NCBI GenBank assembly: GCA_028280405.1 | Contig: JANQLW010000016.1 | Span: 11,119 to 75,118, forward strand | Origin: Bacteroidales bacterium | GTDB taxonomy: Bacteria > Bacteroidota > Bacteroidia > Bacteroidales > GCA-2711565 | Reading direction: 5' to 3' | Length of the DNA: 64,000 bases | Part shown: positions 10,495-55,532 of the stretch, one piece after another | Layout: each line of letters starts with the position of its first letter | How positions within the stretch are numbered: the stretch's first letter is position 1 | Translations under genes and position numbers: made by a program | The notes under the pieces: generated by a model | The model's database searches: none | Told to the model about the DNA's origin: nothing | The model's input: only the letters and a program-made list of their open reading frames with translations

Positions 10495-10728
10495 TAAAAA
10501 TTAGTATTGTGATTAGTTGATGATTAAAAGTAGTTTTTTATTTTTTAGTAAGATAGAAAAAAGTCTTAATTTTGTTGAAAATTAGTACGGCTAATTGTAC
10601 TTTTTTAACTCCCCACATAATCATCATTGAATGATAGAGATGTGCTATATGCTTTATTTAGATTATTAAATTAAAATAGTTGAATAAGTCAGATAGACTT
10701 TTTCGATTTATGGTATAATATATAAAGA

Positions 10729-11307
10729 GTGAGGAATTATTCTAATACAGAAATAATAAACGGATTTAAAGGAAATGATACGGAATTTCTTGAAGAACTT
10801 TACCGTACGTATTACCCTTCTATTCTAAAATTTGTTAAGAATAACAATGGAAAAGATGAAGATGCCCGGGATGTTTTTCAGGAGGCCCTTTTAATTATTT
10901 ATCAAAAAGTTAGAAAGAATTCATTTACTCTTGACACTACGTTCTTGACTTATATATATGCGATAAGCAAGAATCTCTGGATGAAAGAACTTCGCAAAAA
11001 GAAACTAAGCAATTCGGTAATTAAAGAATTGGATGAGGTGGAAGATATCGATTATTACATTAGCTTTGAAAACGAATATAAACTTAATGTAGAATACTTT
11101 ATTTTTCGTTCACATTTTAACAAGCTGAGTAAAAACTGTAAAGAAATATTGAGAATGTTTCTTAGCAAAGTTTCTTATGAAAAGATTGCATGTATTTTAA
11201 ACTATAAGAATGAAATTGTAGTTCGAAAAAGAAAGTACAGATGCAAAAATATATTAGTTGAAAGAATTAAAAATGATGTCAGGTATAAAGAAATCAAGAA
11301 GCAATGA
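10729..11307 (+). CDS. ECF-type sigma-70 family RNA polymerase sigma factor
   Basis: 192 aa. Region 2-like DARDVFQEALLIIYQK...YIYAISKNLWMKELRK and a region 4 HTH around SYEKIACILNY. GTG start. Confidence 0.8.
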   Translation: MRNYSNTEIINGFKGNDTEFLEELYRTYYPSILKFVKNNNGKDEDARDVFQEALLIIYQKVRKNSFTLDTTFLTYIYAISKNLWMKELRKKKLSNSVIKELDEVEDIDYYISFENEYKLNVEYFIFRSHFNKLSKNCKEILRMFLSKVSYEKIACILNYKNEIVVRKRKYRCKNILVERIKNDVRYKEIKKQ

Positions 11308-40083: not shown

Positions 40084-41877
40084 ATGAGAACTACTGTAAA
40101 AAGCATTATTGAGAAATACAATAATGATAAAACCAGATTAATGGACATTTTAATTGATGTTCAGAAGGAATTCGGTTTTATACCTGATGAAGCTGTTGAG
40201 GTTATTGCTGAAGGTTGTGGTTTATCAAAAGTGGATGTTAATCAGACACTTTCGTTTTACCACTTCTTTACAAAGAAACCTGTAGGCGAATATGCCGTTT
40301 ATCTTAACAACAGCGCAGTAGCTGAAATGAAAGGCTTTGCAAGTGTTGCCAAAGCATTCGAAGAAGAAGCCGGATGCGCATTTGGTGAAGTTACCGAAGA
40401 CGGTAAAATTGGATTACACGAAACCGCTTGTATCGGTATGAGTGACCAGGAGCCAGCAGCTATTATTAACAATGTTGTATTTACCAATCTTACTCCCGCC
40501 AAAGTTAAAGAGATTGTTGGCCAGATGAAAGCTGGTAAAGATGTTAAAGAAATGATCTCTGCAAAAGGAGATGGAAAAAATGCGAATGAATTAATCAATG
40601 CTGAGGTATTTAACAATATTCGTAAAAAAGGTGAAGTTATTTTCTCAGATTACGAAATTGGTACTGCTTTGAAAAAGCTTGGTACCATGAATCCTGAAGA
40701 AGTAATTGATGAGGTAAAAGCTTCTTATGTGCGTGGTAGAGGTGGAGCTGGTTTCCCTACAGGCTTAAAATGGGAATTCTGCCGTAAATCGGAAGGTACA
40801 CGTTATGTGCTTTGTAATGCTGATGAAGGTGAACCAGGTACTTTTAAAGAAAGAGTAATCTTAACAGAGGTTCCTAAATTATTATTTGAAGGTATGGCTG
40901 TTTGTGGCTATGCGATCGGTTCTAAAGTAGGGATTCTTTATTTAAGATATGAATATAAATATTTGGAAGCTTATCTTGAAAATGTGCTTGCAGAAATGAG
41001 AGCTTCTAATTTATTAGGAAAAAATATTCAGGGAATTGAAGGATTTGATTTTGATGTCAGAATTCAATTTGGAGGTGGAGCTTATGTTTGTGGTGAAGAA
41101 TCTGCATTGATAGAATCTGCGGAAGGTAAACGCGGTGAACCACGTAACCGTCCTCCATTCCCGGTACAAAAAGGATATATGGATTCTCCAACTGTTGTAA
41201 ATAATGTGGAAACTCTTTGTTCAATTGTTAAAATTATGAATAAAGGTTCTGAATGGTTTACGATGATGGGTTCACGTGAAAGTGCAGGTACTAAATTATT
41301 AAGTATTTCCGGAGATTGTAAATATCCAGGTGTATATGAAATTGAATGGGGCTTGAGAGTAAGAGATATGCTTGAAATGGTTGGTGCCGAAGATGTCCAA
41401 GCTGTACAAGTTGGCGGACCTTCAGGCGTAATGATTGGCCCTAAAGATTTTAAACGTACTATTTGTTTTGAAGATCTTCCAACAGGTGGTTCGATCATGA
41501 TTTTCAATAACGAACGTAAACTGATAGAAGATGTTGTTACTAATTTCACTGATTTCTTCATTGAAGAGTCCTGTGGATCTTGTGTTCCTTGTCGTGCAAT
41601 CACCGTTTTATTACGTCAAAGACTTCAAAAAATTATTGATGGTAATGGTGTAATGAGTGATATTGATGAGTTAAAAGACTGGGCTGAAAAACTGAAAGTT
41701 GCCAATCGTTGTGGATTAGGCCAAACTGCAGGTGCTCCGGTATTAACCACTATCGAGAATTTCCGCGATAAATATGAAGCACTTGTGCAAAAAGATATTG
41801 ACTTTGATTCAGGATTTGATTTGGAAGCTTCAGTTCAGGCTTCTTGTGCATTCGTTGACAGAACTCCAAATTTATAA
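40084..41877 (+). CDS. hoxF: NAD(P)-reducing hydrogenase diaphorase subunit HoxF (NuoE-like + NuoF-like fusion)
   Basis: 597 aa with NADH/FMN site GRGGAGFPTGLKWEF and 4Fe-4S ESCGSCVPCR. The N-terminal NuoE-like part has lost most 2Fe-2S Cys ligands (VYLNNSAVAEMKG..ETACIGMSDQEPA). Confidence 0.9.
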   Translation: MRTTVKSIIEKYNNDKTRLMDILIDVQKEFGFIPDEAVEVIAEGCGLSKVDVNQTLSFYHFFTKKPVGEYAVYLNNSAVAEMKGFASVAKAFEEEAGCAFGEVTEDGKIGLHETACIGMSDQEPAAIINNVVFTNLTPAKVKEIVGQMKAGKDVKEMISAKGDGKNANELINAEVFNNIRKKGEVIFSDYEIGTALKKLGTMNPEEVIDEVKASYVRGRGGAGFPTGLKWEFCRKSEGTRYVLCNADEGEPGTFKERVILTEVPKLLFEGMAVCGYAIGSKVGILYLRYEYKYLEAYLENVLAEMRASNLLGKNIQGIEGFDFDVRIQFGGGAYVCGEESALIESAEGKRGEPRNRPPFPVQKGYMDSPTVVNNVETLCSIVKIMNKGSEWFTMMGSRESAGTKLLSISGDCKYPGVYEIEWGLRVRDMLEMVGAEDVQAVQVGGPSGVMIGPKDFKRTICFEDLPTGGSIMIFNNERKLIEDVVTNFTDFFIEESCGSCVPCRAITVLLRQRLQKIIDGNGVMSDIDELKDWAEKLKVANRCGLGQTAGAPVLTTIENFRDKYEALVQKDIDFDSGFDLEASVQASCAFVDRTPNL

Positions 41878-41897
41878 TCTATTAAAGAAAACAGATC

Positions 41898-42728
41898 ATG
41901 AGTATCTTCAAAAAAATATTCGGTAGAAAATCTTCAAAACCAAAAGTTGTGGAGATTGAAAAAGAAGAAGTTACTGTGGAAGACAAAAAAATAATAGTAG
42001 AAGAAAAAGAAATAAAAAATAAAACAATGAGCGAAAAAATAAAATTTACAATAGACGGCAAAGAATGTCTTGCGGAAAGAGGACAGAATGTTCTTGACGC
42101 TGCTTTGGACAATGGGATTTATATCCCATATCTATGTCATGTCAGAGGTGTAAAACAAGCTGGTTCATGTCGTGTTTGTAATGTAAAAGTTGCCGGCCGT
42201 ACCATGACCGCCTGTACTACTCCGGTAGCTCCCGGAATGGAAGTTGAAAACAACACTGCTGAATTACGTGAACTTCGTTTAACCATTATCGAAGCCCTAT
42301 TCGTAGAAGGAAATCACTTCTGTCCTTCATGTGAAAAAAGTGGTAATTGCGAATTACAGGCGTTAGCCTATCATTATCAAATGATGGTGCCACGTTTCCC
42401 TTATGCATTCCCACAGAAAAAAGTTGAAGCTGATAATTCAAAAATATTAATTGACCGTAATCGTTGTGTATTATGTAAACGTTGTATCCGTTCATTTAAA
42501 GATGAAAACGGAAAGAGTTACTTTGCATTTACGAAAAGGGGCCATAAACTTGAAATCAGTATGGATAAAGAAATAGCTGCAAACCTTACTGATGAAAAAG
42601 CTCAGGAAATTATGGATACTTGTCCTGTAGGTGCCCTTATCAAGAAAGAAAAAGGATTTGACGAGCCAATTGGAAGTCGTAAATTTGACAAACAGGCAAT
42701 TGGTAGTGATATTAAAAGCGTTGTTTAA
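41898..42728 (+). CDS. hoxU: Hydrogenase diaphorase Fe-S subunit HoxU (NuoG N-terminal-like)
   Basis: Fe-S cluster motifs CHVRGVKQAGSCRVCNV, HFCPSCEKSGNCELQ, CVLCKRCIR and CPVGAL. The first 43 residues are a K/E-rich extension, and an alternative start at 42027 (MSEKIKFTIDGKE) would give a canonical length. Confidence 0.85.
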   Translation: MSIFKKIFGRKSSKPKVVEIEKEEVTVEDKKIIVEEKEIKNKTMSEKIKFTIDGKECLAERGQNVLDAALDNGIYIPYLCHVRGVKQAGSCRVCNVKVAGRTMTACTTPVAPGMEVENNTAELRELRLTIIEALFVEGNHFCPSCEKSGNCELQALAYHYQMMVPRFPYAFPQKKVEADNSKILIDRNRCVLCKRCIRSFKDENGKSYFAFTKRGHKLEISMDKEIAANLTDEKAQEIMDTCPVGALIKKEKGFDEPIGSRKFDKQAIGSDIKSVV

Positions 42729-42752
42729 TTAAATTAATGGAGGTAACAAATA

Positions 42753-43301
42753 ATGAGTAAAGCAATAGTTGCAACAACATCATTAGCAGGCTGCTTCGGA
42801 TGCCATATGTCACTACTTGACATCGACGAAAGAATTCTTAAACTTATCGAATTGGTTGAGTTTAATAAATCTCCGATTGACGATATCAAAACTTTCACAA
42901 AACAATGTGATGTAGGTTTGATCGAAGGCGGTTGCTGTAATAGTGAAAATGTTCACGTATTAAAAGAATTTAGAAAAAACTGTAAAATATTAATCTCTGT
43001 AGGAGAATGTGCAATCATGGGTGGTCTTCCGGCTATGCGTAATAATATTCCTGTTGAAGAATGTATTCAGGAAGCATATCTTGACGGGCCTACTGTTGGA
43101 AACAACACTGATAAAATTCTTCCGAATGATGATGAACTTCCAATGATTCTTGATAAAGTTTATCCTTGTCATGAAATCGTGAAGATTGATTATCATCTTC
43201 CAGGTTGTCCTCCACGTGCGGACTTATTATGGGAGGCTTTAGTTGCGCTTCTTACTGGAAATGAATTGAAATTACCTTACGAAGTTGTTAAATTTGATTA
43301 A
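42753..43301 (+). CDS. hoxY: [NiFe]-hydrogenase small subunit HoxY (group 3 type)
   Basis: 182 aa with proximal-cluster motifs LAGCFGCHMSLLD, GECAIMGG and LPGCPP. Confidence 0.9.
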   Translation: MSKAIVATTSLAGCFGCHMSLLDIDERILKLIELVEFNKSPIDDIKTFTKQCDVGLIEGGCCNSENVHVLKEFRKNCKILISVGECAIMGGLPAMRNNIPVEECIQEAYLDGPTVGNNTDKILPNDDELPMILDKVYPCHEIVKIDYHLPGCPPRADLLWEALVALLTGNELKLPYEVVKFD

Positions 43302-43313
43302 AAAGAAAAGAAA

Positions 43314-44765
43314 ATGGCAAAAAAGATAACTATAGAACCTGTAACCAGAGTAGAAGGCCACGGTAAAGTGACCATTCACTTGGATGATAACGGACAAGTT
43401 ACACAGAGTCGTTTACATATTGTTGAGTTTAGAGGATTTGAACGCTTTGTACAAGGTCGCCCTTACTGGGAAGCTCCGGTATTAGTTCAACGTCTTTGTG
43501 GTATTTGCCCGGTATCTCACCATCTTGCTGCTGCGAAAGCATTAGATGTTATCGTTGGAGCTGGTACCGGTGAAGGATTAACTCCTACTGGAGAGAAAAT
43601 GCGTCGTTTGATGCATTACGGACAAATGTTCCAATCGCATGCACTTCACTTTTTCCACTTAGTATCTCCGGATTTACTATTTGGAATTGATGCAGATCCT
43701 GCAATCAGAAATGTAATTGGCGTTGCCCAAAAGTTCCCGGATCTTGCAGTTCAAGGTGTGATGATGCGTAAATACGGACAGGAAATTATTAAAGCTACCG
43801 CAGGTAAGAAAATCCACGGTACCGGTGCAATTCCTGGTGGTATCAACAAACACTTAACTGAAGAAGAAAAACAAAGCTTCTTAAACGGGCCAGATCCAAT
43901 GAACATCGATAAGATGATTGAATGGTCGCATGCCGCACTTGAATTATTCAAAGGCTATCATAAAGAAAATGCAGGATTGATTGATTCATTCGCAGCATTT
44001 GATTCTAGTCACTTATCATTAGTTCGTAAAGATGGTGCATTAGACCTTTATCATGGTGTTCTTAGAGCAGTAGACAAAGATGGTAACAAAATTCTTCATG
44101 ATGTAGATTATCAGGATTATCTGAAATATATTGGCGAAGAAGTACGTGACTGGTCATATATGAAATTCCCTTACTTATTAGAGTATGGTAAAGAAAACGG
44201 TTGGTATAGAGTAGGTCCTTTAGCTCGTTTAAATACTTGTGACTTTATTCCAACTCCATTAGCTCAAAAAGAGTTTGAAATTTATAAAGCTTACACAAAC
44301 GGTAAGCCAAATAATATGTCAATGCATATGCACTGGGCTCGCTTGATCGAGATTTTACACTCAGCTGAGATGATGAAAGAATTATTGAATGATCCTGACT
44401 TACTCAAAGGTGACCTTGTTACTAAAGGTGAAAAACAAAGCGAAGGTGTTGGTTTAATTGAAGCTCCTCGTGGAACTTTATTCCACCACTATGAAGTAAA
44501 CAAAGATGATCAGATTACGATGGCTAACTTAATTGTGTCTACTACCAATAACAATGAACCAATGAACTTAGCTGTTCGCAAAGTAGCTGAAGATCAAATG
44601 ACCGGACAAGCGGAAATTACCGAAGGTATGATGAATGCATGTGAAGTTGCTATCCGTGCTTATGACCCATGCCTAAGTTGTGCGACTCACGCATTAGGTA
44701 AAATGCCTCTTGAAATGTCCCTTTATGACGCTAAAGGAAACTTAGTTGATAAGAAAAGATCATAA
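43314..44765 (+). CDS. hoxH: [NiFe]-hydrogenase large subunit HoxH
   Basis: 483 aa. The N-terminal RLCGICPVSH and C-terminal DPCLSCATH motifs are the Ni-Fe ligands. They are followed by a 24-aa tail, which is the protease-cleaved extension. Confidence 0.95.
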   Translation: MAKKITIEPVTRVEGHGKVTIHLDDNGQVTQSRLHIVEFRGFERFVQGRPYWEAPVLVQRLCGICPVSHHLAAAKALDVIVGAGTGEGLTPTGEKMRRLMHYGQMFQSHALHFFHLVSPDLLFGIDADPAIRNVIGVAQKFPDLAVQGVMMRKYGQEIIKATAGKKIHGTGAIPGGINKHLTEEEKQSFLNGPDPMNIDKMIEWSHAALELFKGYHKENAGLIDSFAAFDSSHLSLVRKDGALDLYHGVLRAVDKDGNKILHDVDYQDYLKYIGEEVRDWSYMKFPYLLEYGKENGWYRVGPLARLNTCDFIPTPLAQKEFEIYKAYTNGKPNNMSMHMHWARLIEILHSAEMMKELLNDPDLLKGDLVTKGEKQSEGVGLIEAPRGTLFHHYEVNKDDQITMANLIVSTTNNNEPMNLAVRKVAEDQMTGQAEITEGMMNACEVAIRAYDPCLSCATHALGKMPLEMSLYDAKGNLVDKKRS

Positions 44766-44793
44766 ATTGATTAACCTCAATTAGATTGTACAA

Positions 44794-44842
44794 ACAGGTT
44801 GCAAATGATAGGATAATTCCTGAAATTGCAGCCTGTTTTTTT
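44794..44842 (+). terminator. Rho-independent terminator after hoxH
   Basis: ACAGGTTGCAA-(21 nt)-TTGCAGCCTGT forms an 11 bp stem including one G-U pair, followed by TTTTTTT. It starts 29 nt after the hoxH stop. Confidence 0.65.
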
Positions 44843-44928
44843 AGTTTGAAGCATAGGGCTTGCAGCCTGTAGCTTTATTTAATTTAGAATTATTATAAAT
44901 AAACTAATTATTTTATTAAATTTGATAT

Positions 44929-45417
44929 ATGAAAATATTACTATACGGATATGGTAATCCCGGTAGACAAGATGATGGTTTAGGAAATGTTTTTATTGAC
45001 AGAATTGAAGAATGGATCAAAAAACAAGGAATTGAAGGGATTGAATTAGATAGTAATTACCAACTAAATATAGAAGATGCAGAAGCGATATCCGGTAAGG
45101 ATCTTGCAATTTTTATTGATGCATCGGTAGAGGATATTGAAGACTATTGTATCTCGAAGGTGACCGAATCTTCGGAAATTACATATACAACTCATGCAGC
45201 TTCTCCCGGCTATATCGTGGATTTGTGTAAACAAATTTATGGAAAAGCTCCGGTAACCTATTTAGTACATATTAAAGGAGTTGAATGGGCTTTTAAAGAA
45301 GGGCTTACTGAAAAAGCAGTCTCTCATTTGGAAATGGCTTTGGAGGCAATTAAGCCGTTTTTATTAAACCCACAACCTTTAATAGACGGAACTGCAGAAT
45401 ATAAAACCTGTAATTAA
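44929..45417 (+). CDS. hoxW: Hydrogenase maturation endopeptidase (HoxW/HycI family)
   Basis: 162 aa with the N-terminal motif LLYGYGNPGRQDDGLG typical of the family. Confidence 0.85.
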   Translation: MKILLYGYGNPGRQDDGLGNVFIDRIEEWIKKQGIEGIELDSNYQLNIEDAEAISGKDLAIFIDASVEDIEDYCISKVTESSEITYTTHAASPGYIVDLCKQIYGKAPVTYLVHIKGVEWAFKEGLTEKAVSHLEMALEAIKPFLLNPQPLIDGTAEYKTCN

Positions 45418-46692: not shown

Positions 46693-47100
46693 ATGAAAAA
46701 GTATTTGATGGTTATCGGAATAATTGCTTTATTAGGAGCATGCGTTTCTACTAAAGATATGGTTAAACATGATCAGTCTGCTGAAACAAAAGATAGTACA
46801 AAATATGAACTTGTAACTTTTGACTTTGGCTTTGATTCTTGGTTTGCAATGTATGAGCATAATGGAGATGTTAAAAGCCTAGATTATTATAAAAGCTGGA
46901 ATAGTCGCTATGTTACTGAATGGAACCACAGAGCTACCTCTTATTATACTAGCCGTTTTTTTAATTCTACTCTAAATTTTGATCCTTATGATATTGAGGA
47001 TTTGAAAACACAAAGAAAATTGTTTTATTATTTTCAATATGTGGAGAATAAATTGAGAATTCCTATTATTCAAGGGGGCGGACCAAGATTGTTTTATTAA
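46693..47100 (+). CDS. Hypothetical lipoprotein (135 aa)
   Basis: Signal peptide plus lipobox (LLGAC). No recognisable catalytic motif. Confidence 0.55.
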   Translation: MKKYLMVIGIIALLGACVSTKDMVKHDQSAETKDSTKYELVTFDFGFDSWFAMYEHNGDVKSLDYYKSWNSRYVTEWNHRATSYYTSRFFNSTLNFDPYDIEDLKTQRKLFYYFQYVENKLRIPIIQGGGPRLFY

Positions 47101-47147
47101 AATAAAAAGCCGGATGTTAAATCCGGTCTTTTTATCTTTTACATTAT

Positions 47148-47672
47148 TTATTCCTTATTTAAGGTGATCATTATAATAAGGTCACATTTTTCATCAGTAT
47201 ATTTCTTAATTTCTTCTTTATTCCAGATTCTGTTGATTGATTTTATTCGTGCAGTATCAATTGCTTTTAACTCTTTTTGAGTCACTTTTTTCCCATCAAC
47301 AAATATAAATACTGTTTTAGGCTTTTTCTTAGCTTCATTATAAGCTTTATGGGTAACTATTTTAATCGTTCCACCCTGTGCTTGTTTTCCATATGTTTGT
47401 ATGGCTTCTACAAAATCCATTACCCTGATTTCCCTGATATCTTCTTTAGAAATTTGCAATGGGGTTTCCTTTAATTCAATATTGGACCGGTATAAATTCC
47501 CATCCAGAATAATTAGTGGGTTATATGTATTAATCTCAGCATTATCATTCAGTTCCCGAATATAATTTACCAGAAAATGTTTGTCTTCACCTTTATTTAA
47601 AAGATGGTATCGCTGTGTTGTACAGGAAGAAAAAATAAAAACTACCAAAGCTAAACGAATTAAATACTTCAT
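47148..47672 (-). CDS. Hypothetical lipoprotein (174 aa)
   Basis: Signal peptide plus lipobox (IFSSC). It lies downstream of the TonB-dependent receptor after a 221-nt gap. Confidence 0.5.
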   Translation of the reverse strand: MKYLIRLALVVFIFSSCTTQRYHLLNKGEDKHFLVNYIRELNDNAEINTYNPLIILDGNLYRSNIELKETPLQISKEDIREIRVMDFVEAIQTYGKQAQGGTIKIVTHKAYNEAKKKPKTVFIFVDGKKVTQKELKAIDTARIKSINRIWNKEEIKKYTDEKCDLIIMITLNKE

Positions 47673-47893: not shown

Positions 47894-50119
47894 TTAAAAT
47901 TTGAAAGATACTTTAGCTCTTAGTGAAAAAGGAATGCCAGGAATGAAATGAATTTCTTCAACAGGAATTGTTTCATTCATTAGTTTGCTTTCTGTAGCAA
48001 ATTGAGTTTCATTCCATTCTGTATCGAATAGATTCTCAACCATAATTTCAAAAGTCCAATGTTTATAACTATAGCTTAAATTGAAATCTGTGATGAAATA
48101 ACCTTTGGCAATGATGCTGTTGTTTTCATTTGCCGGGCGATCACTAATATATCTATATTTTATACTTCCGGCAAAACCTGAGTTGTGTTTAAAGTTTAAT
48201 CCTCCTGCAGAAGTAAATTCAGGGGCTAAAGGTATAAAGTCTTCCCCCTTTTTTTCTTCAATGGATCTGGCGTAAGCATAATTGATATCAAAATTAAAAT
48301 ATAACCAGTCGAGTATCTGATAGTTGAGCCCCATATCCAGCCCATACCTTTTTGTTTTACCACTTGGCTCTACAATGCCTTCATCACCTACATATACAAA
48401 TTCCTGTTGTAAATATAAATACCATAAAGAAGTGTTCAGTAAGAGTTTTGGATACGGCTTCCAAATAAATCCTATATCGGCACCATAGGCTGCAGGAATC
48501 GCATTTTTTACCTTATTGCTAAGCAGAAGCCTGCTATCGTTGGAGTGAAATCCTTTACCTGTTTTCAGAAAAACCTGGAAATTATTGCTTGCGCTATACA
48601 CAATGTTAAATTTAGGGCTTATAGCAGTTTCTTTTTTTACTTGTGATAAATACTCAGAAGAAAGCTGATCATAATAATCAAAAATAAAATGATCTAATCT
48701 TACGGATGGATTTAAAAGCCATTTTCCACATTTGATACTACTACTAAAATATGAATAGATATTGGTTTCATTAATGTTTCCAAATTGAATTGGGTTTAAA
48801 ACTTTTTTCCGATTTAAAGTATGAGATAATTCTACATCATTTATAATATCATATCTGAACCCTAATCCTGCCTGATTTGTTATTTCTGTCTTGCCAATTT
48901 TACTGATGCTTTTTAATTCGTTGTTCAGCCCAATGATGTGTCTATCTTCTTTTTGTTTTATTTGATCTCCATATACCGGATCGTTTAAATAAAAAGTAAA
49001 ATTGGAATATAGTTCAAAATCATATTTTGAGTAAAAAGCATTTGTCTTTAAATAAAGATCTTGGCTGATAGGCTTAAAATAATTAAAGGCAATATTTGTT
49101 CTGGATGTATTTCCTCCTTCGGTATCGTCAACTGCTCCAAAGCGTCCTATTACTCCTGAATCTACTAATCTTTGAGGAATTTGCCCTGAAGCATCCCATT
49201 TACTTTTTAAATATGAAGCCTGAAAAGATAACTTTGAATGATCTTTAAACCAGAAACTATATTTACTCATTAAGTTAACCCGGTTCAGGTTTTGAGGAGA
49301 GTCAAAAGGGCCGTCAGTTAGTAATAGTTCTGATGCAAGATAGGCCGAATTCCGTTTGTTGTTCTCCAGTAAATTAAGTAATACAGTTGTTCTGATTGTA
49401 TTAAATGAACCTAATTCCATTCCGAGTATATTGTATTCAATTCTGTCTTTAGTCTGGAAATCGACATAACCTGCAGTAGTAAAATTCCCTTTGCTTCCAT
49501 AATAGGGGCCTTTCCCGAAGTCTATATTTTTTATCGTCTCCGGAATTACAAAATGCAAATCGGCATAGCCTTGTCCGTGAGCATGGGAAACCATATTTAC
49601 AGGCATACCATCTACTGTAATATTAATATCTGTACCATGATCCAGGTCAAAGCCCCTTAAAAATAACTGTTCAGCTTTGCCGCCTCCGGCATGTTGGCCA
49701 ATTATTAGTCCCGGGACAATTCTTAATATTTCCTGAGAAGAATTTACCGGATTGGTTTGTAATTCAATTTGAGTGATGATATTCAATGTGTTTAAATGGT
49801 TTGAAATTGTGATTTCAGATAAATTGAGAGGTTCTTCTTCCAATATAATTTCTAATGTATTCTTTAAATGCTCTTCTTTTATAAGGATGAGTTTTTCTTT
49901 ATACTGAAGATGACTTATCTTAATGGTGTCCCCAATACCCACATCACTCATGTTGAAATACCCATTACTGTTAGAATGAGTATGAGATGCTCTGTTGATG
50001 TTAAGGATGTAAGCGTCCTCTATTTTAAGATTTTTTTTGTTGGAAATGTAACCTTCTATATGATATGCATATCCCAATACCGAAGGCAATAGCATTGCTA
50101 TTACAATAAATTTTTTCAT
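47894..50119 (-). CDS. TonB-dependent receptor (last gene of the NikR-headed cluster)
   Basis: 741 aa with a signal peptide, a CarboxypepD_reg-like N-terminus, a plug and a barrel ending in ...KVSFKF. Confidence 0.9.
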   Translation of the reverse strand: MKKFIVIAMLLPSVLGYAYHIEGYISNKKNLKIEDAYILNINRASHTHSNSNGYFNMSDVGIGDTIKISHLQYKEKLILIKEEHLKNTLEIILEEEPLNLSEITISNHLNTLNIITQIELQTNPVNSSQEILRIVPGLIIGQHAGGGKAEQLFLRGFDLDHGTDINITVDGMPVNMVSHAHGQGYADLHFVIPETIKNIDFGKGPYYGSKGNFTTAGYVDFQTKDRIEYNILGMELGSFNTIRTTVLLNLLENNKRNSAYLASELLLTDGPFDSPQNLNRVNLMSKYSFWFKDHSKLSFQASYLKSKWDASGQIPQRLVDSGVIGRFGAVDDTEGGNTSRTNIAFNYFKPISQDLYLKTNAFYSKYDFELYSNFTFYLNDPVYGDQIKQKEDRHIIGLNNELKSISKIGKTEITNQAGLGFRYDIINDVELSHTLNRKKVLNPIQFGNINETNIYSYFSSSIKCGKWLLNPSVRLDHFIFDYYDQLSSEYLSQVKKETAISPKFNIVYSASNNFQVFLKTGKGFHSNDSRLLLSNKVKNAIPAAYGADIGFIWKPYPKLLLNTSLWYLYLQQEFVYVGDEGIVEPSGKTKRYGLDMGLNYQILDWLYFNFDINYAYARSIEEKKGEDFIPLAPEFTSAGGLNFKHNSGFAGSIKYRYISDRPANENNSIIAKGYFITDFNLSYSYKHWTFEIMVENLFDTEWNETQFATESKLMNETIPVEEIHFIPGIPFSLRAKVSFKF

Positions 50120-50190: not shown

Positions 50191-50889
50191 CTATAATCCT
50201 AAAAATACAATTGCCATTCCACTCATAAATATAGTTCCACCGGCAATTGCATGCGTATATTTTTCAAGCTTTCCAAAAGGAAGCAAATGAATACCAAAGG
50301 ATGCAAGCAATACTATAGTTAGCATTGTTGCTATTGTGATAATGGCAAATACGGAAGTTACAGCTACCATACCCCAGATGCTTAATTCAGCTGCCGGATA
50401 CATTAAGATTGGAATTAAAGGCTCGCATGGCCCCAATACAAATATTGTAAATAGGATCCAGGGGGTAAGGTTTGGTTTATGTGTATGATCATGTTCATCC
50501 CTATGGGTGTGTTCATGAACATGGATACTTCCATCTGCATGCATATGCCGGTGTTTATGTGGCTTATTCTTTATGGCTCTGTAAATTCCCCATACCATAT
50601 ATATAAACCCAAATATGATAAATGACCATGCTGCTAGGTCACCCCGGGTCCCTTCAAAAATTTTAAGCTTGTTGACACCTATCCCAAATGCCACGCCAAT
50701 GACCCCTAAAATAATTGAGCTGCCAACATGGCCCACTCCACAGGCAATGGTAAGCCATATTGTTTTCCACATTGACCATTTTCTGGCTTTTGACATCACG
50801 ATGAATGGCAAATAATGATCCGGGCCAAATAGGGTATGGGTAAATGCAATGATTGCTGCTGTACCCATTAAAACTGTTATTCCTTCCAC
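50191..50889 (-). CDS. His-rich-loop membrane protein, putative Ni/Co permease (UreH/NiCoT-like)
   Basis: 232 aa with about 6 TM helices. HTLFGPDH in TM1 resembles the NiCoT/UreH H-x(4-5)-DH signature. The central loop reads HKHRHMHADGSIHVHEHTHRDEHDHTH. Confidence 0.7.
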   Translation of the reverse strand: MEGITVLMGTAAIIAFTHTLFGPDHYLPFIVMSKARKWSMWKTIWLTIACGVGHVGSSIILGVIGVAFGIGVNKLKIFEGTRGDLAAWSFIIFGFIYMVWGIYRAIKNKPHKHRHMHADGSIHVHEHTHRDEHDHTHKPNLTPWILFTIFVLGPCEPLIPILMYPAAELSIWGMVAVTSVFAIITIATMLTIVLLASFGIHLLPFGKLEKYTHAIAGGTIFMSGMAIVFLGL

Positions 50890-50894: not shown

Positions 50895-51989
50895 TTAGTT
50901 TTTAGTTATTAGTTGATGAATTCCATCCCCATCCAATTGATTATATTTTTTGCCACTGCAAGAAAAGCATGTGCTATCTGTTATGCGGGTCGACATTGTG
51001 CCTTCTCCACATGATTTGCAAACAATACTTTCATGTGATGGAGCATAACCGGGTATTTCTACATCAATTTCTTCTATCTTAAAAAGTTTATCAAAATCTA
51101 ATGCCAAGGTTGCAAAAGCCCTGATTTTTCCGCTCTCCTTGAATTTGATAATTTCTTCTTTTGAATGATCTTGTTCTTTTACTACTTTCTGAAAACTTTC
51201 ACTGAATGCAGGATGAGCAGAACGCATAAATTTTTTTGCATCTGCTCTTGTCGAAATACGGATTCCATTTCCATCCCTACGAGTCAATGTAAAAGCTGTT
51301 TTGCCAATGTCTCTGAAAATAAGTGCGTTATTTCCAAAGGTGCACCCGGTAATAAATTGGATACCATCACTGAAACAATTATTGGTTTCCGTAATTGCTA
51401 AAAGATCTTCCAATCCATCACTATTATCCCGGATAATTTTCATTGCTTTTACAGCAGCCATTACACCCAGTGTAATTCCCGGACAATAATGGCCATGAAT
51501 GGAAGCTGCTTTTATTAATAATGTTTCCAGATCATCTCTAAGTATATCATTGATGATCTCTCTTCTCGGGTTATTTTTTAGTTCTTCTAAACGAATATGA
51601 TCCAGCTTGTTTTCAACCATTGAAAAATCAACAGGCTTAATATCCAGAACAGGAGTATTATTTAAAGCATCCAAACCAATTACTGTTAATATATTCCCTT
51701 TTACCTCAAGTAATTTCACAGTTGTAATACCAATTGAACTGGGACGATCAGGTTTTCTGGTTGAAAATACACCTTTATAGTTTCCTCTAAGGGTTGTAGC
51801 TTTTAATTCATAAGAATCAGATTGATTGAATTCAAATACAATATCAATAAATTCGTATTCTTCTATACGATACAAGCCTTCTAGAAATTCATCTTTTATG
51901 ATAATCTGACTTTTATGTTTTTTTATCTCAAAAGGATTTTTCTCTGAGTCAAAATTATTTTTAACGGTTCCTATTTCTGTAATTCTCAT
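50895..51989 (-). CDS. Fusion protein: TsaA/YaeB (TrmO-like) N-terminal domain + FmdE-like domain + C-terminal zinc ribbon
   Basis: 364 aa. The N-terminal part, ...VFSTRKPDRPSSIGITTVKLLEVKGNILTVIGLDALNNTPVLDIKP, is the TsaA fold signature. The central IHGHYCPGITLGV is the FmdE signature. The C-terminus carries CKSCGEG...CFSCSGK. Confidence 0.75.
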   Translation of the reverse strand: MRITEIGTVKNNFDSEKNPFEIKKHKSQIIIKDEFLEGLYRIEEYEFIDIVFEFNQSDSYELKATTLRGNYKGVFSTRKPDRPSSIGITTVKLLEVKGNILTVIGLDALNNTPVLDIKPVDFSMVENKLDHIRLEELKNNPRREIINDILRDDLETLLIKAASIHGHYCPGITLGVMAAVKAMKIIRDNSDGLEDLLAITETNNCFSDGIQFITGCTFGNNALIFRDIGKTAFTLTRRDGNGIRISTRADAKKFMRSAHPAFSESFQKVVKEQDHSKEEIIKFKESGKIRAFATLALDFDKLFKIEEIDVEIPGYAPSHESIVCKSCGEGTMSTRITDSTCFSCSGKKYNQLDGDGIHQLITKN

Positions 51990-51990: not shown

Positions 51991-52752
51991 TTAGTTTGTT
52001 TTGGGTATTATAAAATGATCTCCATTATTATGTATGACATTTACTTTCACGTCGTAAAGGTTTTCAATCGTATGATTTGAAATAATTTCTTTCCCTCCGC
52101 AGGCGAATAATTCTCCTGATTTTAGTAATATGAAATGGTCGCTGAATTGTAAAGCCAGGTTTAAATCATGTATCGCTACTATAACTGTGATCCCTTGTGA
52201 GGATAAGTCTTTTAGAAGCTTCAGAACTTCAAGTTGATGCTTGAGGTCAAGGTTGGCTGTAGGTTCGTCAAGTAATAAAATCTCAGGTTGTTGAGCCAGG
52301 GCCCTGGCAATAAAAACTCGTTGTCGTTGTCCACCACTTAGTTTATTTATACTCTTCTGAGATATGCCCTCCAAATCAAGTTTTTCAAGGGTAGCAGCAG
52401 TAATCTTCAGGTCATCGTTTTTGGGAGACCATTGTATATGTGGCTTTCTTCCCAGTAAGACCGTGTCAAAAACGGAAGCTGGAAAAGTCCCTCCTTCGCT
52501 TTGCGGAACATAAGCGATCTTTTTTGCCAGTTCATTTGCTTTGAATTTGGATATCTCAACAGCATCAATAAGTATCCTGCCTTTTTGAACTTTTAAAATA
52601 CGGTCAATACATTTGAGCAGTGTGCTCTTTCCAGAACCGTTGGGACCAACAATACTTATCAGTTTCCCTTTTTCAAACTGGTGTGAGATATTTTTCAACA
52701 CTAAATTCCCATTATACCCAAAATCCAGGTTTTGCAGCTCTATTTTAACCAT
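51991..52752 (-). CDS. ABC transporter ATP-binding protein (FecE/FepC/BtuD class)
   Basis: 253 aa with Walker A GPNGSGKST, signature LSGGQRQR and Walker B ILLLDEP. Confidence 0.95.
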   Translation of the reverse strand: MVKIELQNLDFGYNGNLVLKNISHQFEKGKLISIVGPNGSGKSTLLKCIDRILKVQKGRILIDAVEISKFKANELAKKIAYVPQSEGGTFPASVFDTVLLGRKPHIQWSPKNDDLKITAATLEKLDLEGISQKSINKLSGGQRQRVFIARALAQQPEILLLDEPTANLDLKHQLEVLKLLKDLSSQGITVIVAIHDLNLALQFSDHFILLKSGELFACGGKEIISNHTIENLYDVKVNVIHNNGDHFIIPKTN

Positions 52753-53813
52753 AGGTTCTTCCCCCTTCCTTTGATTAATAATATGATGAATATGGGTGCC
52801 CCGATAAATGAGGTTAAAATACCAACAGGTAATACCATTGGTGCGATGATACTCCTGGCAATTAAGTCGGAACTTAGCAAAAATACTCCACCAAATAATG
52901 CTGTTGCAGGGATTAAAAATCGTTCGTCGCTTCCAATCATTCTTCTGACTAAATGTGGAACAACCAGGCCTACGAAAGCAATAATGCCAAAAAAAGATAC
53001 GGCAACGGCAGTTGTCAATGATGCTATTAGCATGACCCTGATCCTGGTTTTTTCAACGTTTACCCCCAAACTATTCGCTGTTTCATCTCCGGTATTTAAA
53101 GATTGAATATTCCATCGATTCCAGATGAAATAAAGTAGAGCAGGAATTATAATTGCAAGCAGAATATAAAATTCATTCCAGGAAGCTCTCCCCAGGTCTC
53201 CGAAAGTCCAGAAGACAATAGATGCAAGCTGGACATCTTCGGCAAAAAATTCAAGTGCCGTTGTGCCGGCTATAAATAGTGAACCCATGATAATTCCTGT
53301 AAGTATCATCGTCTCTGGTGAAGCATCTTTAAACCTGGCCATAAAAAGAATCACAAAAGTGCTGGCCAGGCTCCAGAAAAAAGCAGAAATGGTTATTAGG
53401 TATGGATTATCAATTAAAACAGCATCGAATACACTGCTTTGCGTTGAACCTGCCCCTAATACAATAACCGCAAAAGCTGCTCCAAATGCAGATGCATTTG
53501 AAATTCCCAACGTAAAAGGAGACCCTAAAGGGTTTCTTAATATACTTTGCATAACAGCTCCCGATACACTTAAAGCCATTCCGGCTAAAACGGCTGATAA
53601 AACTCTCGGTAAACGGATATTTAAAACAATCTGTCTTTTGCTGGATTCCGAACCAGAAAAAATACTATTAAAAATATCGGTAAAACTAATTTGGGAAGAA
53701 CCAAAAGTAATTCCCAGCGTTATCAGTAGTAGAAGCATAATCAAACTCCCAATCACAAAAGCCCGTTTTCGGGTAGTAATTTTTTTATATTCTTTGATTA
53801 CACTTTTATTCAT
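52740..53813 (-). CDS. FecCD-family ABC permease
   Basis: 357 aa with about 9-10 TM helices and the FecCD pattern (GSPFTLG.., ..GIIAFVGLVVPHLVR..). Confidence 0.9.
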   Translation of the reverse strand: MNKSVIKEYKKITTRKRAFVIGSLIMLLLLITLGITFGSSQISFTDIFNSIFSGSESSKRQIVLNIRLPRVLSAVLAGMALSVSGAVMQSILRNPLGSPFTLGISNASAFGAAFAVIVLGAGSTQSSVFDAVLIDNPYLITISAFFWSLASTFVILFMARFKDASPETMILTGIIMGSLFIAGTTALEFFAEDVQLASIVFWTFGDLGRASWNEFYILLAIIIPALLYFIWNRWNIQSLNTGDETANSLGVNVEKTRIRVMLIASLTTAVAVSFFGIIAFVGLVVPHLVRRMIGSDERFLIPATALFGGVFLLSSDLIARSIIAPMVLPVGILTSFIGAPIFIILLIKGRGKNLWLK

Positions 53814-54933
53814 AATTTAATTTTCCATAGCCCATTCCATACAAATTCACCATCTCATCATAAATAGCCTTGTTCAAAAATTGTTGATAAACCTGATTTG
53901 CTGTTTCCTTTATATTAAAATCCGGGAATTGTTCAGGCTTGAGAATGCTGGCGATATAATATGTATTGATTAAAATATGTTCATAATTAATCGTGTTCCA
54001 AATATGTGGTAAGAGCGTATAAACCTCTCCTTTTTTTATAGCCGGAATAAGTTTACCAAAAGTCGAATTTTTATCCAGGTCTTTCTTTGATAGCTTATAT
54101 CCGGAAATATCGATAAAAATTTTATCTGGGTTCCACTTAATAATTTCTTCTTTGTCAATAAGAACTGTTGTAAGTTTTGAAAAACCGGACTTGGAGTTTT
54201 GGATGAGTTCTTCTGCAGGATTGATACAATTTGTATACCTGAAAGGAGCATATTTAGGTTCGGTTGAATTTATCCCATGTGCCCCTCTATATGCAATACC
54301 TCCTATATAAACCCTTTCTTTATTGAATGATTGGCTGCATTTCAATTTGATCTCTTCCAGATTTGTCTCCATAAATGTTATCAGGCTATCGGCTCGTTTT
54401 TCCTTATTGATCAACTTTCCTAGTAGTTTAAGAGATGCATAGAATTCTTTTTTATGATCGTTAAAGTCTCCGTAGTTGAGACAAACTACCGGAATTCCTG
54501 TCTTCTTTTGCAACTCATCTGCTTCTGAACTTGAGAAATATGTGCAAAAAATAATATCCGGTTGAAGGGCTGTGATTAACTCTGGATCAGCACTATTGCC
54601 GGAACCGATCAGAGGCAATTTTCTTAATTCCGGGTAAGCATATAAATAAGGTACACTTCTTCTTCTTTCATTTGCTTCAATACCAATGACTTTTTGAGTG
54701 GCATTCAGATAACATATCATTCGCAAAGCTCCGGATCGATGGGCAATAATTTTATTGATCTGTTTTGGAATATGAACCAGTCTTCCGTTCATGTCCTTTA
54801 TTTCAACCATTTCGGCTCTGGTTTTGTTTTGCTTTGTTTGAGTACAAGAAGGAAAAATAATTAGGAAAATAATACCCCCCAAACTTATACTTGCCCAAAA
54901 TGGTGTTAATATTTTTATAAAGGTGTTACTCAC
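53806..54933 (-). CDS. Periplasmic substrate-binding protein (FepB/BtuF/CeuE class) of the ABC importer
   Basis: 375 aa with an N-terminal anchor plus Cys (IIFPSC). Its gene overlaps the permease gene by 8 nt. Class assignment rests on operon position and general resemblance. Confidence 0.75.
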   Translation of the reverse strand: MSNTFIKILTPFWASISLGGIIFLIIFPSCTQTKQNKTRAEMVEIKDMNGRLVHIPKQINKIIAHRSGALRMICYLNATQKVIGIEANERRRSVPYLYAYPELRKLPLIGSGNSADPELITALQPDIIFCTYFSSSEADELQKKTGIPVVCLNYGDFNDHKKEFYASLKLLGKLINKEKRADSLITFMETNLEEIKLKCSQSFNKERVYIGGIAYRGAHGINSTEPKYAPFRYTNCINPAEELIQNSKSGFSKLTTVLIDKEEIIKWNPDKIFIDISGYKLSKKDLDKNSTFGKLIPAIKKGEVYTLLPHIWNTINYEHILINTYYIASILKPEQFPDFNIKETANQVYQQFLNKAIYDEMVNLYGMGYGKLNYE

Positions 54934-54946: not shown

Positions 54947-55348
54947 TTATTTAGCAGTACTCATAACCAATTGTCCGTGTTTAATCCCTTTTATAGCAAT
55001 CAATTTGTTTGATAATTCAATAAGTTCACTTGCCTTTCCTTTTACTGCAATTGTTTCCAGACAGTTATCGTGGTTTAAATGTACATGCTGCACGGATAAA
55101 ATTAAATGATGATAATCATGCTGTAATTCAGTAGAGCGTGTTTGTAATCCACGTTTATGATGGTCATAAACTAAAACAATTGCTCCTGCAACTTCCTCAT
55201 TTCCTTCCCATTCATCTTCAACCAGATTCTTTTTTATAAGATACCTGATGGCTTGTGAACGGTTTGGAAAATTTTGAGTTTCCACTAACTTGTCCAGATT
55301 CTTAAGCAAATCTTCTTCTAAAGAAACTCCAAATCTTTTTACTTGCAT
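54947..55348 (-). CDS. nikR: Nickel-responsive regulator NikR
   Basis: 133 aa. It has a ribbon-helix-helix N-terminus ([17 protein letters not shown]...[10 protein letters not shown]) and C-terminal Ni ligands (YDHHKR...QHDYHH...[11 protein letters not shown]) collinear with E. coli NikR. Confidence 0.9.
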
Positions 55349-55351: not shown

Positions 55352-55378
55352 GTGTTACGTTTATGGGATTGGTGACAC
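55352..55378. promoter_or_regulatory. Candidate NikR operator GTGTTAC-N13-GTGACAC
   Basis: An inverted repeat (one mismatch from perfect) starts 4 nt upstream of the nikR ATG. It has the same half-site and spacing as the GTGTTAC-N13/14-GTAACAC NikR signal that I recall from comparative genomics of non-enterobacterial NikR regulons. Confidence 0.55.
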
Positions 55379-55532
55379 AAATGTAAATATAATTTTTATA
55401 GAGATAACAATTAGATTTGATTCTTTTGGTATTTATTTTTGATATAAATAAGAGTGGGGTGACACCCATTGGGGCGTCGCCCTGAAGGGCATCACCCCTA
55501 TATTCTTTTTTCTTAAATTTGTCAAAAAAACT

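Follow-up and report, generated by a model that had tools for sequence, protein, structure and literature searches.

The fusion gene described here, on the minus strand of a 64,000-nucleotide (64-kb) stretch of a Bacteroidales genome (the whole of it hereafter called the window), lies in an operon that also carries nikR and an ABC importer. As fusions of the same kind are found in predicted nickel-regulated uptake operons of many bacteria and archaea, the product is probably a nickel-handling factor and not a tRNA methyltransferase. From sequence and gene context, it may well be a cytoplasmic accessory of a NikR-repressed nickel acquisition system, with a chemistry that we infer. How Bacteroidota and many anaerobes take up nickel is mostly unexplored, and the hand-off of nickel from importer to enzyme maturation is poorly understood beyond a few model organisms. 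The fusion family is conserved across domains of life and links a presumably NikR-controlled Fec/Btu-type importer to genes for [NiFe] hydrogenase, CO dehydrogenase (CooT) and the nickel-pincer cofactor. It thereby provides a concrete hypothesis for two orphan families, FmdE (structures since 2006-2010) and the widespread short archaeal YaeB/TrmO paralogues. The family itself is already catalogued and is not rare.

Domain organization of the fusion protein

The original prediction called an ORF at positions 50895-51989 and read its product as a TrmO-like domain fused to an FmdE-like domain and a zinc ribbon. The ORF was confirmed, and the three-part fusion was recovered by Pfam, by an invariant CxxC...CxxC pattern and by fold matches of an AlphaFold model. 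The gene and its parts are as follows.

50895..51989, minus strand: fusion gene, 364 aa with an ATG start (TrmO_N barrel, helical linker, FmdE core and Cys4 zinc ribbon)
51630..51989, minus strand: TrmO_N-like beta-barrel, aa 1-120 (alignment to AF0241, conservation, fold match to 2nv4)
51510..51629, minus strand: helical linker, aa 121-160, with an NPR motif (P141, R142); helices in the model
51060..51509, minus strand: FmdE core, aa 161-310, with the His2Cys2 site H165, H167, C169 and C205 and the D208/Q211 motif
50898..51059, minus strand: Cys4 zinc ribbon, aa 311-364 (C324, C327, C341, C344), from conservation and a match to the treble-clef finger of 2gvi

The domain borders, for which a Pfam scan had been proposed, were aa 21-119 for TrmO_N (PF01980; 85.6 bits, E 3.6e-24, cut-off 26.8) and aa 164-304 for FmdE (PF02663; 110.4 bits, profile positions 1-133 of 133). 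The AlphaFold model (pLDDT 84.9, pTM 0.74) matched SAM-bound AF0241 (2nv4) with a TM score of 0.80 normalised to the target, an rmsd of 2.3 A and 34% identity, and also matched the FmdE domain and zinc finger of TA1109 (2gvi); for the TrmO_N barrel, fold matches were obtained with 2nv4, 7btu, 3okx and 1xqb. Conservation was assessed in 34 diverse fusions sharing 36-58% identity. H165, H167, C169, C205, D208, Q211 and the Cys4 ribbon were invariant in this set, and R78, D107 and K118, which align with the SAM contacts Arg92, Asp125 and Lys136 of E. coli TrmO, were conserved in at least 90%. The C-terminal CxxC...CxxC (C324, C327, C341, C344) showed no variation across the family, and in many fusion homologues the ribbon matched zf-dskA_traR.

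The NPR motif of the linker (P141, R142) was likewise at least 90% conserved among diverse fusions. It was considered as a leftover of the DPRxxY motif of TrmO, but this was rejected because NPR stands at the N-terminus of the stand-alone FmdE proteins P0137, P0153 and P0157. By this comparison, the helical linker with NPR is assigned to the FmdE half.

Within the FmdE half, IHGHYC (H165, H167, C169) and C205-x2-D208-x2-Q211 fit the FmdE motifs (FHGHxC, distal Cys, Asp/Gln). The metal site corresponds to His15/His17/Cys19/Cys55 of 2GLZ, D208/Q211 correspond to Asp58/Gln61, and the Cys4 ribbon aligns with the finger of 2gvi. The FmdE name derives from formylmethanofuran dehydrogenase operons of methanogens; such operons are missing at the fusion locus, and no fmd or fwd genes were found in the window operon or in about 90 loci inspected. 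To our knowledge, the FmdE family is without a single member of established function. The solved FmdE/FwdE proteins TA1109 (2gvi), SYN_00638 (3d00) and Dhaf_2992 (2glz) match the fusion in sequence and fold but, unlike it, have no SAM barrel (PMC2954224). As in these proteins, the FmdE half of the fusion is probably dimeric. The His2Cys2 site of 2GLZ, tetrahedral in the crystal, bound zinc and nickel at a Zn:Ni ratio of 2.6:1, and as the nickel may derive from purification resin or crystallisation buffer, the FmdE site could be a zinc site (PMC2954224).

Operon structure and the NikR-type operator

The operon runs in the order nikR, substrate-binding protein (PBP), FecCD permease, ATPase, fusion, His-rich membrane protein and TonB-dependent receptor. 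Its genes and control elements, together with a neighbouring gene cluster, are listed below.

55378..55385, minus strand: candidate promoter element TACATTTG (TAnnTTTG); the operator begins on its final G
55352..55378, minus strand: NikR-type operator GTGTCAC-N13-GTAACAC, a palindrome ending 3 nt before the nikR ATG
54947..55348, minus strand: nikR, nickel-responsive repressor, first in the operon (RHH_1 and NikR_C, 107.9 bits in Pfam)
53806..54933, minus strand: class III substrate-binding protein (Peripla_BP_2), TM0189-like (Pfam 77.4 bits)
52740..53813, minus strand: FecCD-family ABC permease (Pfam FecCD, 313 bits)
51991..52752, minus strand: ABC ATPase (Pfam ABC_tran, 118.6 bits)
50191..50889, minus strand: His-rich-loop membrane protein (DsbD_2; Pfam 34.7 bits against a cut-off of 24.9)
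47894..50119, minus strand: TonB-dependent outer-membrane receptor (Plug and CarbopepD_reg_2), 71 nt downstream
40084..45417, plus strand: Hox-type [NiFe] hydrogenase (HoxF/U/Y/H-like) and maturation protease, from ORFs and the Pfam families of the L001 counterparts

The NikR product scored 161 bits against NF003381 in NCBIfam (cut-off 105). The best solved relative of the PBP was 2etv (TM0189) at 254 bits, every other match being at 60 bits or below, and the best NCBIfam matches of the ATPase were Fec/heme/corrinoid-type families, all under cut-off. As the ATPase gene occupies 51991..52752, a gap of 1 nt separates it from the fusion gene, just as originally described. The His-rich membrane protein, for which no solved relative was found, is a candidate UreH-like nickel permease, a role that we infer; at 25 of 80 loci its gene follows downstream of the fusion gene. 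No terminator was found between the TonB-dependent receptor (TBDT) gene and the rest of the operon, and in 32 other loci the TBDT gene lies between nikR and the PBP gene instead.

The Hox-type hydrogenase genes are neighbours of the fusion operon and stand outside it. Such genes were found near the fusion in 9-14 other loci, and the hydrogenase is likely a nickel client of the operon.

The operon had been described as NikR-controlled, and this is supported by a palindrome that is unique in the window (one match, 0.02 expected), stands beside the nikR ATG and keeps its position in related loci. The strict pattern GTGTNAC-N12-15-GTNACAC gave few sites in related loci; as direct reading of the upstream regions revealed more degenerate half-sites, the motif was relaxed. 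With the relaxed motif, 27 related loci gave a site 1-3 nt ahead of nikR, and 18 gave one immediately upstream of the TBDT gene. Of 41 regions upstream of nikR, 28 contained a box, its half-sites 13 or 14 nt apart, and in 24 of the 28 box-bearing loci TAnnTTTG ended on its first G. We take TACATTTG to be a candidate -7 promoter element of the Bacteroidota (TAnnTTTG), on the pattern of Bacteroides promoters, and the operator resembles the published NikR class GTGTTAC-N13/14-GTAACAC, from which NikR binding is presumed. A sigma-70 promoter scan, a model ill-suited to Bacteroidota, performed at chance level. Taken together, the arrangement supports an operator overlapping the nikR promoter, and the operon is predicted to be NikR-regulated.

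Distribution and gene context of fusion homologues

The fusion had originally been called unusual. That it is a genuine fusion stands, but its rarity was overstated, as more than 1000 homologues exist and the TrmO_N-FmdE architecture was already in Pfam by 2010 (PMC2954224); archaeal TrmO_N-FmdE fusions were noted in 2024. The taxonomic survey proposed with the prediction placed the fusion in Bacteroidota, Bacillota, Bipolaricaulota, haloarchaea and Asgard archaea.

Gene context was counted in the 57 Bacteroidota loci with enough upstream sequence to be informative. The PBP-FecCD-ATPase module lies directly upstream of the fusion in 45 of them. nikR is present in 37/57. Ten loci contain nickel genes without ABC genes, and a single one (L037) contains neither transporter nor nickel genes. 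The arrangement nikR-fusion, in some cases followed by the His-rich permease gene, occurs without an ABC importer or receptor in L008, L026, L031, L054, L066 and L070, and in L054 and L066 hypDEAB-nikR-fusion faces a Hox operon. The FmdE half alone was found between the His-rich membrane protein gene and HypF in L089.

Beyond the Bacteroidota set, the order PBP-FecCD-ATPase-fusion recurs in Acetohalobium, an Asgard archaeon and Halorhabdus. In Bipolaricaulota the fusion adjoins a [NiFe] hydrogenase. Elsewhere a larE-larB-larC-nikR-fusion arrangement was found, and one archaeon carries nikR, PBP-FecCD-ATPase-fusion and larCBE together. The fusion occupies the same place behind the ATPase gene, or a place beside other nickel genes, in distant bacteria and archaea.

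Fusions of TrmO_N and FmdE in reversed domain order exist as well. One of them lies in a nikR...FecCD-ATPase-CooT-fusion locus, and another locus with a reversed-order fusion showed no transporter and no nickel gene. In L100, FmdE and TrmO_N are encoded by an adjacent gene pair with an 8-nt overlap, which was accepted as a split pair. The reversed-order fusions and this pair indicate that the TrmO_N and FmdE halves belong together. L097 was not counted as a split pair; its ORFs overlap by 50 nt, and it may therefore be a frameshifted fusion.

Predicted role of the fusion protein

The preferred reading is that of a nickel-handling accessory. When nickel is scarce, NikR would leave the operator and the operon would be expressed. 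Nickel, probably chelated, would cross the outer membrane through the receptor and then reach the cytoplasm by way of either the ABC importer or the His-rich permease. There the fusion protein, expected to be dimeric as both parent families are, would load Ni(II) on its His2Cys2 site, which is exposed to solvent in the groove of FmdE, and the putative SAM-binding barrel would either gate the hand-off or release the metal by alkylating or binding an amino-acid-like carrier ligand. Nickel would then move onward to the maturation machineries HypA/HypB, CooT and LarC. The original prediction had favoured metal trafficking or chelate processing over tRNA modification, and the context in the 57 Bacteroidota loci, the recurrence in other phyla and the absence of TrmO features described below all point the same way. 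A simple chaperone role leaves the retention of the putative SAM-binding barrel unexplained.

Parts of this scheme have precedents. In Helicobacter pylori, too, a nickel ABC importer of the Fec/Ceu type, NiuBDE, is paired with TonB-dependent outer-membrane receptors that NikR represses (PMC5140060, PMC3856676). There the chaperone SlyD acts on NiuD, a case of a cytoplasmic metal-binding protein functionally coupled to an importer (PMC7840056). In contrast, the accessory proposed here has no kinship with SlyD and its gene is part of the operon, and the PBP is TM0189-like and distant from CeuE-type binders (about 26 bits). Depending on the lineage, hypA/B, CooT or larC genes lie beside the fusion. 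The FmdE half resembles HypA in pairing a metal site with a Cys4 zinc module, but HypA, CooT and LarC have no SAM-binding domain and no sequence or fold kinship with the fusion. A literature search for functional work that connects TrmO_N or FmdE fusions with nickel, or that deals with archaeal YaeB or the TM0189 ligand, returned nothing beyond the 2010 structure paper and the 2024 archaeal note; TrmO_N and FmdE were unmentioned in two papers on nickel limitation in methanogens.

A possible but unlikely alternative places catalysis at the core, with the fusion as a SAM-dependent enzyme that holds an imported nickel chelate in the groove of FmdE; its barrel would methylate or otherwise alkylate the chelate, abolish its affinity and so free the metal. 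R78, D107 and K118 are kept over wide divergence, the fusion gene directly follows that of the importer ATPase, and the TonB-dependent receptor and class III binding protein imply a chelated substrate. The groove of the FmdE dimer, about 20 A wide, fits a sizeable ligand, and an unidentified ligand is present in 2GVI (PMC2954224). An FmdE-nucleoside hydrolase fusion (L038) and an AF0241-type TrmO_N gene at the head of a TM0189-type importer operon (L105) also agree with an enzymatic role. Against it, the six loci without importer or receptor offer no obvious route for a chelate, no nickelophore is known from fusion-bearing organisms, and the position of Gln22, the SAM amino-group ligand, is not conserved in the fusions, with Asn88 replaced by Ser here. 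This alternative overlaps the preferred reading, and such an enzyme would correspond, for nickel, to the siderophore reductases and esterases that the last gene of a Fec-type operon often encodes. In a bolder version, which we consider doubtful, the fusion would be the first "nickelophore-release" enzyme, with a class VIII barrel, a SAM-dependent transferase, acting on a small-molecule nickel chelate in place of tRNA and the His2Cys2 site of the same polypeptide capturing the freed Ni(II). If true, this would reveal an unrecognised TM0189-type nickel-chelate ABC importer common to bacteria and archaea, and would be the first functional assignment for FmdE proteins as well as for the PRQ-less YaeB paralogues of archaeal type.

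It is improbable that the fusion is instead a nickel- or SAM-sensing regulator, whose metal-loaded form docks on the ATPase or permease and stops uptake, after the model of SlyD-NiuD in Helicobacter or of trans-inhibition domains, or whose zinc ribbon acts on nucleic acid. The position of the fusion beside the ATPase is constant among ABC-bearing loci, and the zinc finger of FmdE proteins has been proposed to serve in protein-protein interaction, regulation or metal sensing (PMC2954224). FmdE has other fusion partners in P0160, which carries a PadR-type DNA-binding domain, and in Methanosaeta, where the partner is a transcriptional regulator according to the 2024 archaeal note; that a Fec-type nickel importer can be controlled post-translationally has a precedent as well (PMC7840056). 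However, some loci combine the fusion with nikR and hyp or lar genes and encode no importer nearby, and NikR already regulates the system.

That the module handles another cargo (molybdate/tungstate, cobalt/corrinoid or iron), with the nickel link as an add-on specific to Bacteroidota, appears very unlikely. No nickel gene was visible at the Asgard and Halorhabdus fusion loci, though the ABC module is present, and CbiM/CbiQ systems near the fusion in Acetohalobium could carry cobalt; as several non-Bacteroidota loci combine an ABC module with no visible nickel gene, the substrate may vary by lineage. The similarity of the PBP to the molybdate/tungstate binder MolA (HI_1472), about 60 bits, is shared with siderophore binders and is no greater than that to other class III binders. 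NikR and its operator at the fusion operon, and hyp, CooT, larBCE and [NiFe] hydrogenase partners in several unrelated phyla including an archaeon, argue for nickel.

Least of all do we expect a genuine tRNA m6t6A37 methyltransferase (TrmO) in which FmdE and the ribbon replace the tRNA-binding C-domain and the operon position is incidental: the TrmO_N fold, residues aligned with three of the four SAM contacts and a zinc ribbon that could bind RNA would allow it, but the TrmO-specific features listed next are missing and the nickel and transporter context is pervasive across phyla. E. coli TrmO (YaeB/TsaA) is a class VIII beta-barrel tRNA m6t6A37 methyltransferase that contacts SAM through Gln25, Arg92, Asp125 and Lys136 and needs a C-terminal domain with DPRxxY for m6t6A formation (PMC4132733). 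The fusion shares with it the N-terminal beta-barrel (TrmO_N; 7btu fold match) and three residues at SAM-contact positions. It scored 81.8 bits against the curated TrmO equivalog TIGR00104 of NCBIfam, below the cut-off of 93.25. No TrmO_C domain was detected in the fusion protein by Pfam at E<=0.01, and DPRxxY is absent, the NPR of the FmdE half being the sole similar motif. Gln25 aligns with E21, a non-conserved position, and PFE stands where TrmO has PRQ, at a position that is variable among homologues. The barrel is, moreover, joined to FmdE and a zinc ribbon, and its gene lies in a nickel operon, not in a housekeeping context. No separate canonical trmO was found within the window.

The closest solved relative of the N-domain was AF0241, a short YaeB of Archaeoglobus fulgidus solved as a SAM complex (PDB 2nv4; 60.5 bits). 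Archaeal tRNA is not known to contain m6t6A (PMC4132733). AF0241, like the fusion barrel, has no tRNA-binding C-domain; it differs from the fusion in standing alone and in retaining PRQ and RPN. Many fusion homologues bear the names TrmO or TsaA in the NCBI and JGI databases, which would favour tRNA modification, but these names, and formylmethanofuran dehydrogenase subunit E, are probably wrong for the fusion family.

Stand-alone proteins also occur in the PRQ-less subfamily (DPxEMRK...S) of which the fusion barrel is a member. P0166 and P0169 were rejected as stand-alone TrmO_N proteins, because they are fusions cut short within the FmdE motif. At most of the 80 metagenome loci, stand-alone TrmO_N genes stood in unrelated contexts, indicating that the importer link is limited to the closest relatives.

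Domain composition and operon of the fusion

The gene encoding the fusion lies on the minus strand among the following features.

Features of the nickel operon and the nearby hydrogenase cluster
54947-55348, minus strand: nikR (NF003381, 161 bits versus a cut-off of 105)
53806-54933, minus strand: class III binding protein
52740-53813, minus strand: FecCD permease
51991-52752, minus strand: ABC ATPase
50895..51989, minus strand: fusion gene (364-aa ORF)
50191-50889, minus strand: DsbD_2-family membrane protein with a His-rich loop
47894-50119, minus strand: TonB-dependent receptor
40084-45417, plus strand: Hox-type [NiFe] hydrogenase cluster with maturation protease, just upstream of the nickel operon, a few kb off

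In Pfam, the fusion matched TrmO_N at residues 21-119 (85.6 bits) and the entire FmdE profile at residues 164-304 (110.4 bits), and its C-terminus carries two CxxC pairs. The AlphaFold model, generated with 50 homologues as input, was confident (pLDDT 84.9, pTM 0.74), and both halves matched solved folds: AF0241 with SAM (2nv4) for the N-terminal barrel (target-normalised TM 0.80, rmsd 2.3 Å), and TA1109 (2gvi), consisting of FmdE and a treble-clef zinc finger, for the C-terminal part. The original prediction of a TrmO-like, FmdE and zinc ribbon fusion was thus correct in every detail, as was the 1-nt gap to the ATPase gene, which ends at 51991.

The operon runs in the order nikR, binding protein, FecCD, ATPase, fusion, His-rich protein and receptor, and a scan of the window revealed no convincing terminator within this run. 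A bipartite sequence, GTGTCAC-N13-GTAACAC, is located at 55352-55378, 3 nt 5′ of the nikR ATG, and is the single match in 64 kb (0.02 expected). A relaxed form of the box occurred 59 times in 1.02 Mb of related loci, 27 times 1-3 nt ahead of nikR and 18 times just 5′ of the TonB-dependent receptor gene heading the transport genes. Among 41 nikR upstream regions, 28 contained the box (spacer 13 or 14 nt), and in 24 of these 28 the initial G of the box is also the final base of TAnnTTTG, the Bacteroides -7 promoter element. The box resembles the published NikR operator class GTGTTAC-N13/14-GTAACAC. This likeness and the promoter overlap suggest that NikR, the regulator originally predicted, would repress the operon by promoter occlusion.

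The bidirectional Hox cluster encodes HoxF-like (597 aa) and HoxU-like (276 aa) products, small (182 aa) and large (483 aa) subunits and the maturation protease (162 aa), and its pairing with the nickel operon was seen again in 9-14 related loci. Between this cluster and the receptor, 46693-47672 holds two small genes of unassigned function, one DUF6146 lipoprotein-like (135 aa, plus strand) and one lacking a family match (174 aa, minus strand), and a bidirectional terminator-like hairpin is located at 47109-47127.

Nickel genes and one importer type around the fusion

The gene context was surveyed in 80 genome loci, nearly all from Bacteroidota, where the prevailing order was nikR-(receptor)-binding protein-FecCD-ATPase-fusion-(His-rich membrane protein). 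Upstream sequence extended to 3.5 kb or more in 57 loci; of these, 45 had the full ABC set with the ATPase immediately 5′ of the fusion, 37 had nikR, 10 had nickel genes without ABC genes, and one had neither. Variants lacking the importer had nikR-fusion(-His-rich protein), and in two loci (L054 and L066) hypD-hypE-hypA-hypB-nikR-fusion faces the Hox operon. The set from binding protein to fusion was also found in Halorhabdus, an Asgard archaeon and Acetohalobium, flanked in the last by CbiM/CbiQ-type systems. In Bipolaricaulota, the fusion adjoins a [NiFe] hydrogenase and its HycI protease; one non-Bacteroidota locus reads larE-larB-larC-nikR-fusion, and an archaeal contig carries nikR, binding protein-FecCD-ATPase-fusion and larC-larB-larE. 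A fusion with reversed domain order follows nikR...FecCD-ATPase-CooT. These recurring contexts, spanning Bacteroidota, other bacterial phyla and archaea, tie the fusion to one importer type and, by way of several distinct nickel-dependent systems, to nickel; the fusion is conserved within gene clusters that are regulated by nickel and linked to nickel enzymes.

The importer is of the TM0189 type. The nearest solved relative of the window's binding protein is the uncharacterised Thermotoga TM0189 (2etv, 254 bits), versus at most 60 bits for other solved relatives, including MolA and siderophore binders. A literature search found no publication on the TM0189 ligand; this structural-genomics protein is annotated as 'putative iron(III)', which may need revisiting given the nickel context. 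Helicobacter NiuBDE is reported to be a Fec/Ceu-type importer able to carry nickel (PMC5140060, PMC7840056, PMC3856676), and the cytoplasmic chaperone SlyD reportedly acts on such an importer (PMC7840056). Proteins of the UreH type are recognised as candidate nickel permeases; for the His-rich membrane protein, the DsbD_2 match in Pfam is the sole established assignment.

The fusion had been thought unusual, but it is catalogued and common. A first protein search returned 1069 homologues, the best 120 of which all had both domains; a 50%-identity representative library gave 4467 matches at E ≤ 0.001, among them full-length fusions with identities as low as about 35%, and relatives were present in 494 species-level genomes. 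Outside Bacteroidota, the fusion occurs in Halanaerobiales, other Bacillota, Bipolaricaulota, haloarchaea and Asgard archaea. A 2010 paper on FmdE structures already lists the architecture (PMC2954224), and a 2024 paper noted it in some Methanosarcinales and Archaeoglobales. Names given to homologues in databases include TrmO, SAM-dependent methyltransferase and formylmethanofuran dehydrogenase subunit E; the TrmO and formylmethanofuran dehydrogenase names are likely misannotations, which, like the nickel association, are apparently unreported in the searchable literature. Full-length fusions in Bacteroidota-like operons on Clostridia, Spirochaetaceae and Methanofastidiosum MAG contigs (L022, L039 and L073) could reflect mis-binning or lateral transfer.

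Metal site, SAM pocket and possible function

In 34 fusions (36-58% identity), H165, H167, C169, C205, D208, Q211 and the Cys4 ribbon were invariant. The six residues correspond to His15, His17, Cys19, Cys55, Asp58 and Gln61 of 2GLZ, in which the metal site, open to solvent on the floor of a groove, was occupied by tetrahedrally coordinated Zn and Ni in a 2.6:1 ratio; FmdE structures are dimeric and show a depression some 20 Å across, with room for a sizeable ligand (PMC2954224). E. coli TrmO contacts SAM through Gln25, Arg92, Asp125 and Lys136 (Kimura et al., PMC4132733). R78, D107 and K118 of the fusion align with three of these four and are at least 90% conserved, so the fusion probably still binds SAM. 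The SAM pocket residues, the His2Cys2 site and the zinc ribbon are all under selection.

We infer that the fusion is a nickel accessory protein of unprecedented domain make-up, which would take up nickel in the cytoplasm and/or process the carrier ligand, and then supply the Hyp, CooT or LarC machineries. A purely catalytic enzyme modifying a nickelophore, with which the SAM pocket and the roomy depression would also be compatible, is unlikely. Regulation of the importer, next to whose ATPase gene the fusion so regularly lies, appears less probable still. The evidence gathered does not distinguish either of these two from the nickel-accepting role. Other cargo (molybdenum, tungsten, cobalt or iron), despite the CbiM/CbiQ neighbours in Acetohalobium, is very improbable in view of the membership tests and the breadth of the nickel context.

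Least probable of all is a true TrmO, which the same two lines of evidence disfavour. The PRQ of TrmO is PFE in the fusion, at a position not conserved among fusions, and the asparagine of RPN is serine. Pfam detected no TrmO_C domain, and TIGR00104 scored 81.8 bits, below its cut-off of 93.25. Among solved structures, the archaeal short form AF0241 matches best (60 bits), versus 35 bits for bacterial TrmO. The C-terminal DPRxxY motif is needed for m6t6A, archaeal homologues lack the DPRxxY domain, and no m6t6A has been detected in archaea (PMC4132733). An NPR motif in the linker was rejected as a TrmO-type motif, as the conserved NPR belongs to the FmdE half. By these sequence criteria the fusion is probably not a TrmO orthologue, and the predicted metal-trafficking or chelate-processing role, rather than tRNA modification, points the right way.

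Other arrangements of the two halves

Reversed-order proteins (FmdE-zinc ribbon-TrmO_N) form a separate family (P0132 and relatives; Aerophobetes, Spirochaetota), and in locus L100 the halves are neighbouring genes with an 8-nt overlap. A second candidate pair (L097) was not counted, as its 50-nt overlap may be a frameshift. Stand-alone FmdE with zinc ribbon also exists (P0137, 60% identity to the C-terminal half of the fusion), encoded between the genes for the His-rich membrane protein and HypF, and the peculiarities of the fusion barrel recur in stand-alone short TrmO_N proteins. Judged from these arrangements, the two halves belong together.

Further variants were observed. The reversed-order fusion of L087 is separated from the ABC ATPase gene by genes for the CooT nickel chaperone and a 68-aa DUF8180 protein (6640-7049), in a cluster that also holds transposase and integrase fragments and a TatD gene. 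L052 carries a tandem duplicate of the fusion (about 8000-10300), L092 a second stand-alone TrmO_N (7133-7693) followed by a second Fec-type importer, and L097 a TrmO_N that bears a CxxC...CxxC zinc ribbon of its own at the N-terminus (10300-10815), the latter two near the fusion. In L105 (5857-9314), an AF0241-type TrmO_N retaining PFQG lies 5 nt upstream of a binding protein-FecCD-ATPase set whose binding protein matches the window's at 257 bits; even canonical-looking short YaeB proteins thus associate with the TM0189-type importer family. P0160, a 425-aa protein that came up among the representatives searched, joins a PadR-type winged-helix DNA-binding domain to an FmdE close to that of the fusion, hinting that some FmdE domains may be sensory modules of transcription factors. 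In L038, a nikR...His-rich protein...Hox locus, the gene directly 3′ of the fusion (4472-5965, plus strand) encodes a 497-aa protein that joins an inosine-uridine nucleoside hydrolase domain to an FmdE domain in which HGHLG replaces HGHxC, so that FmdE has a further partner of the nucleoside-binding kind.
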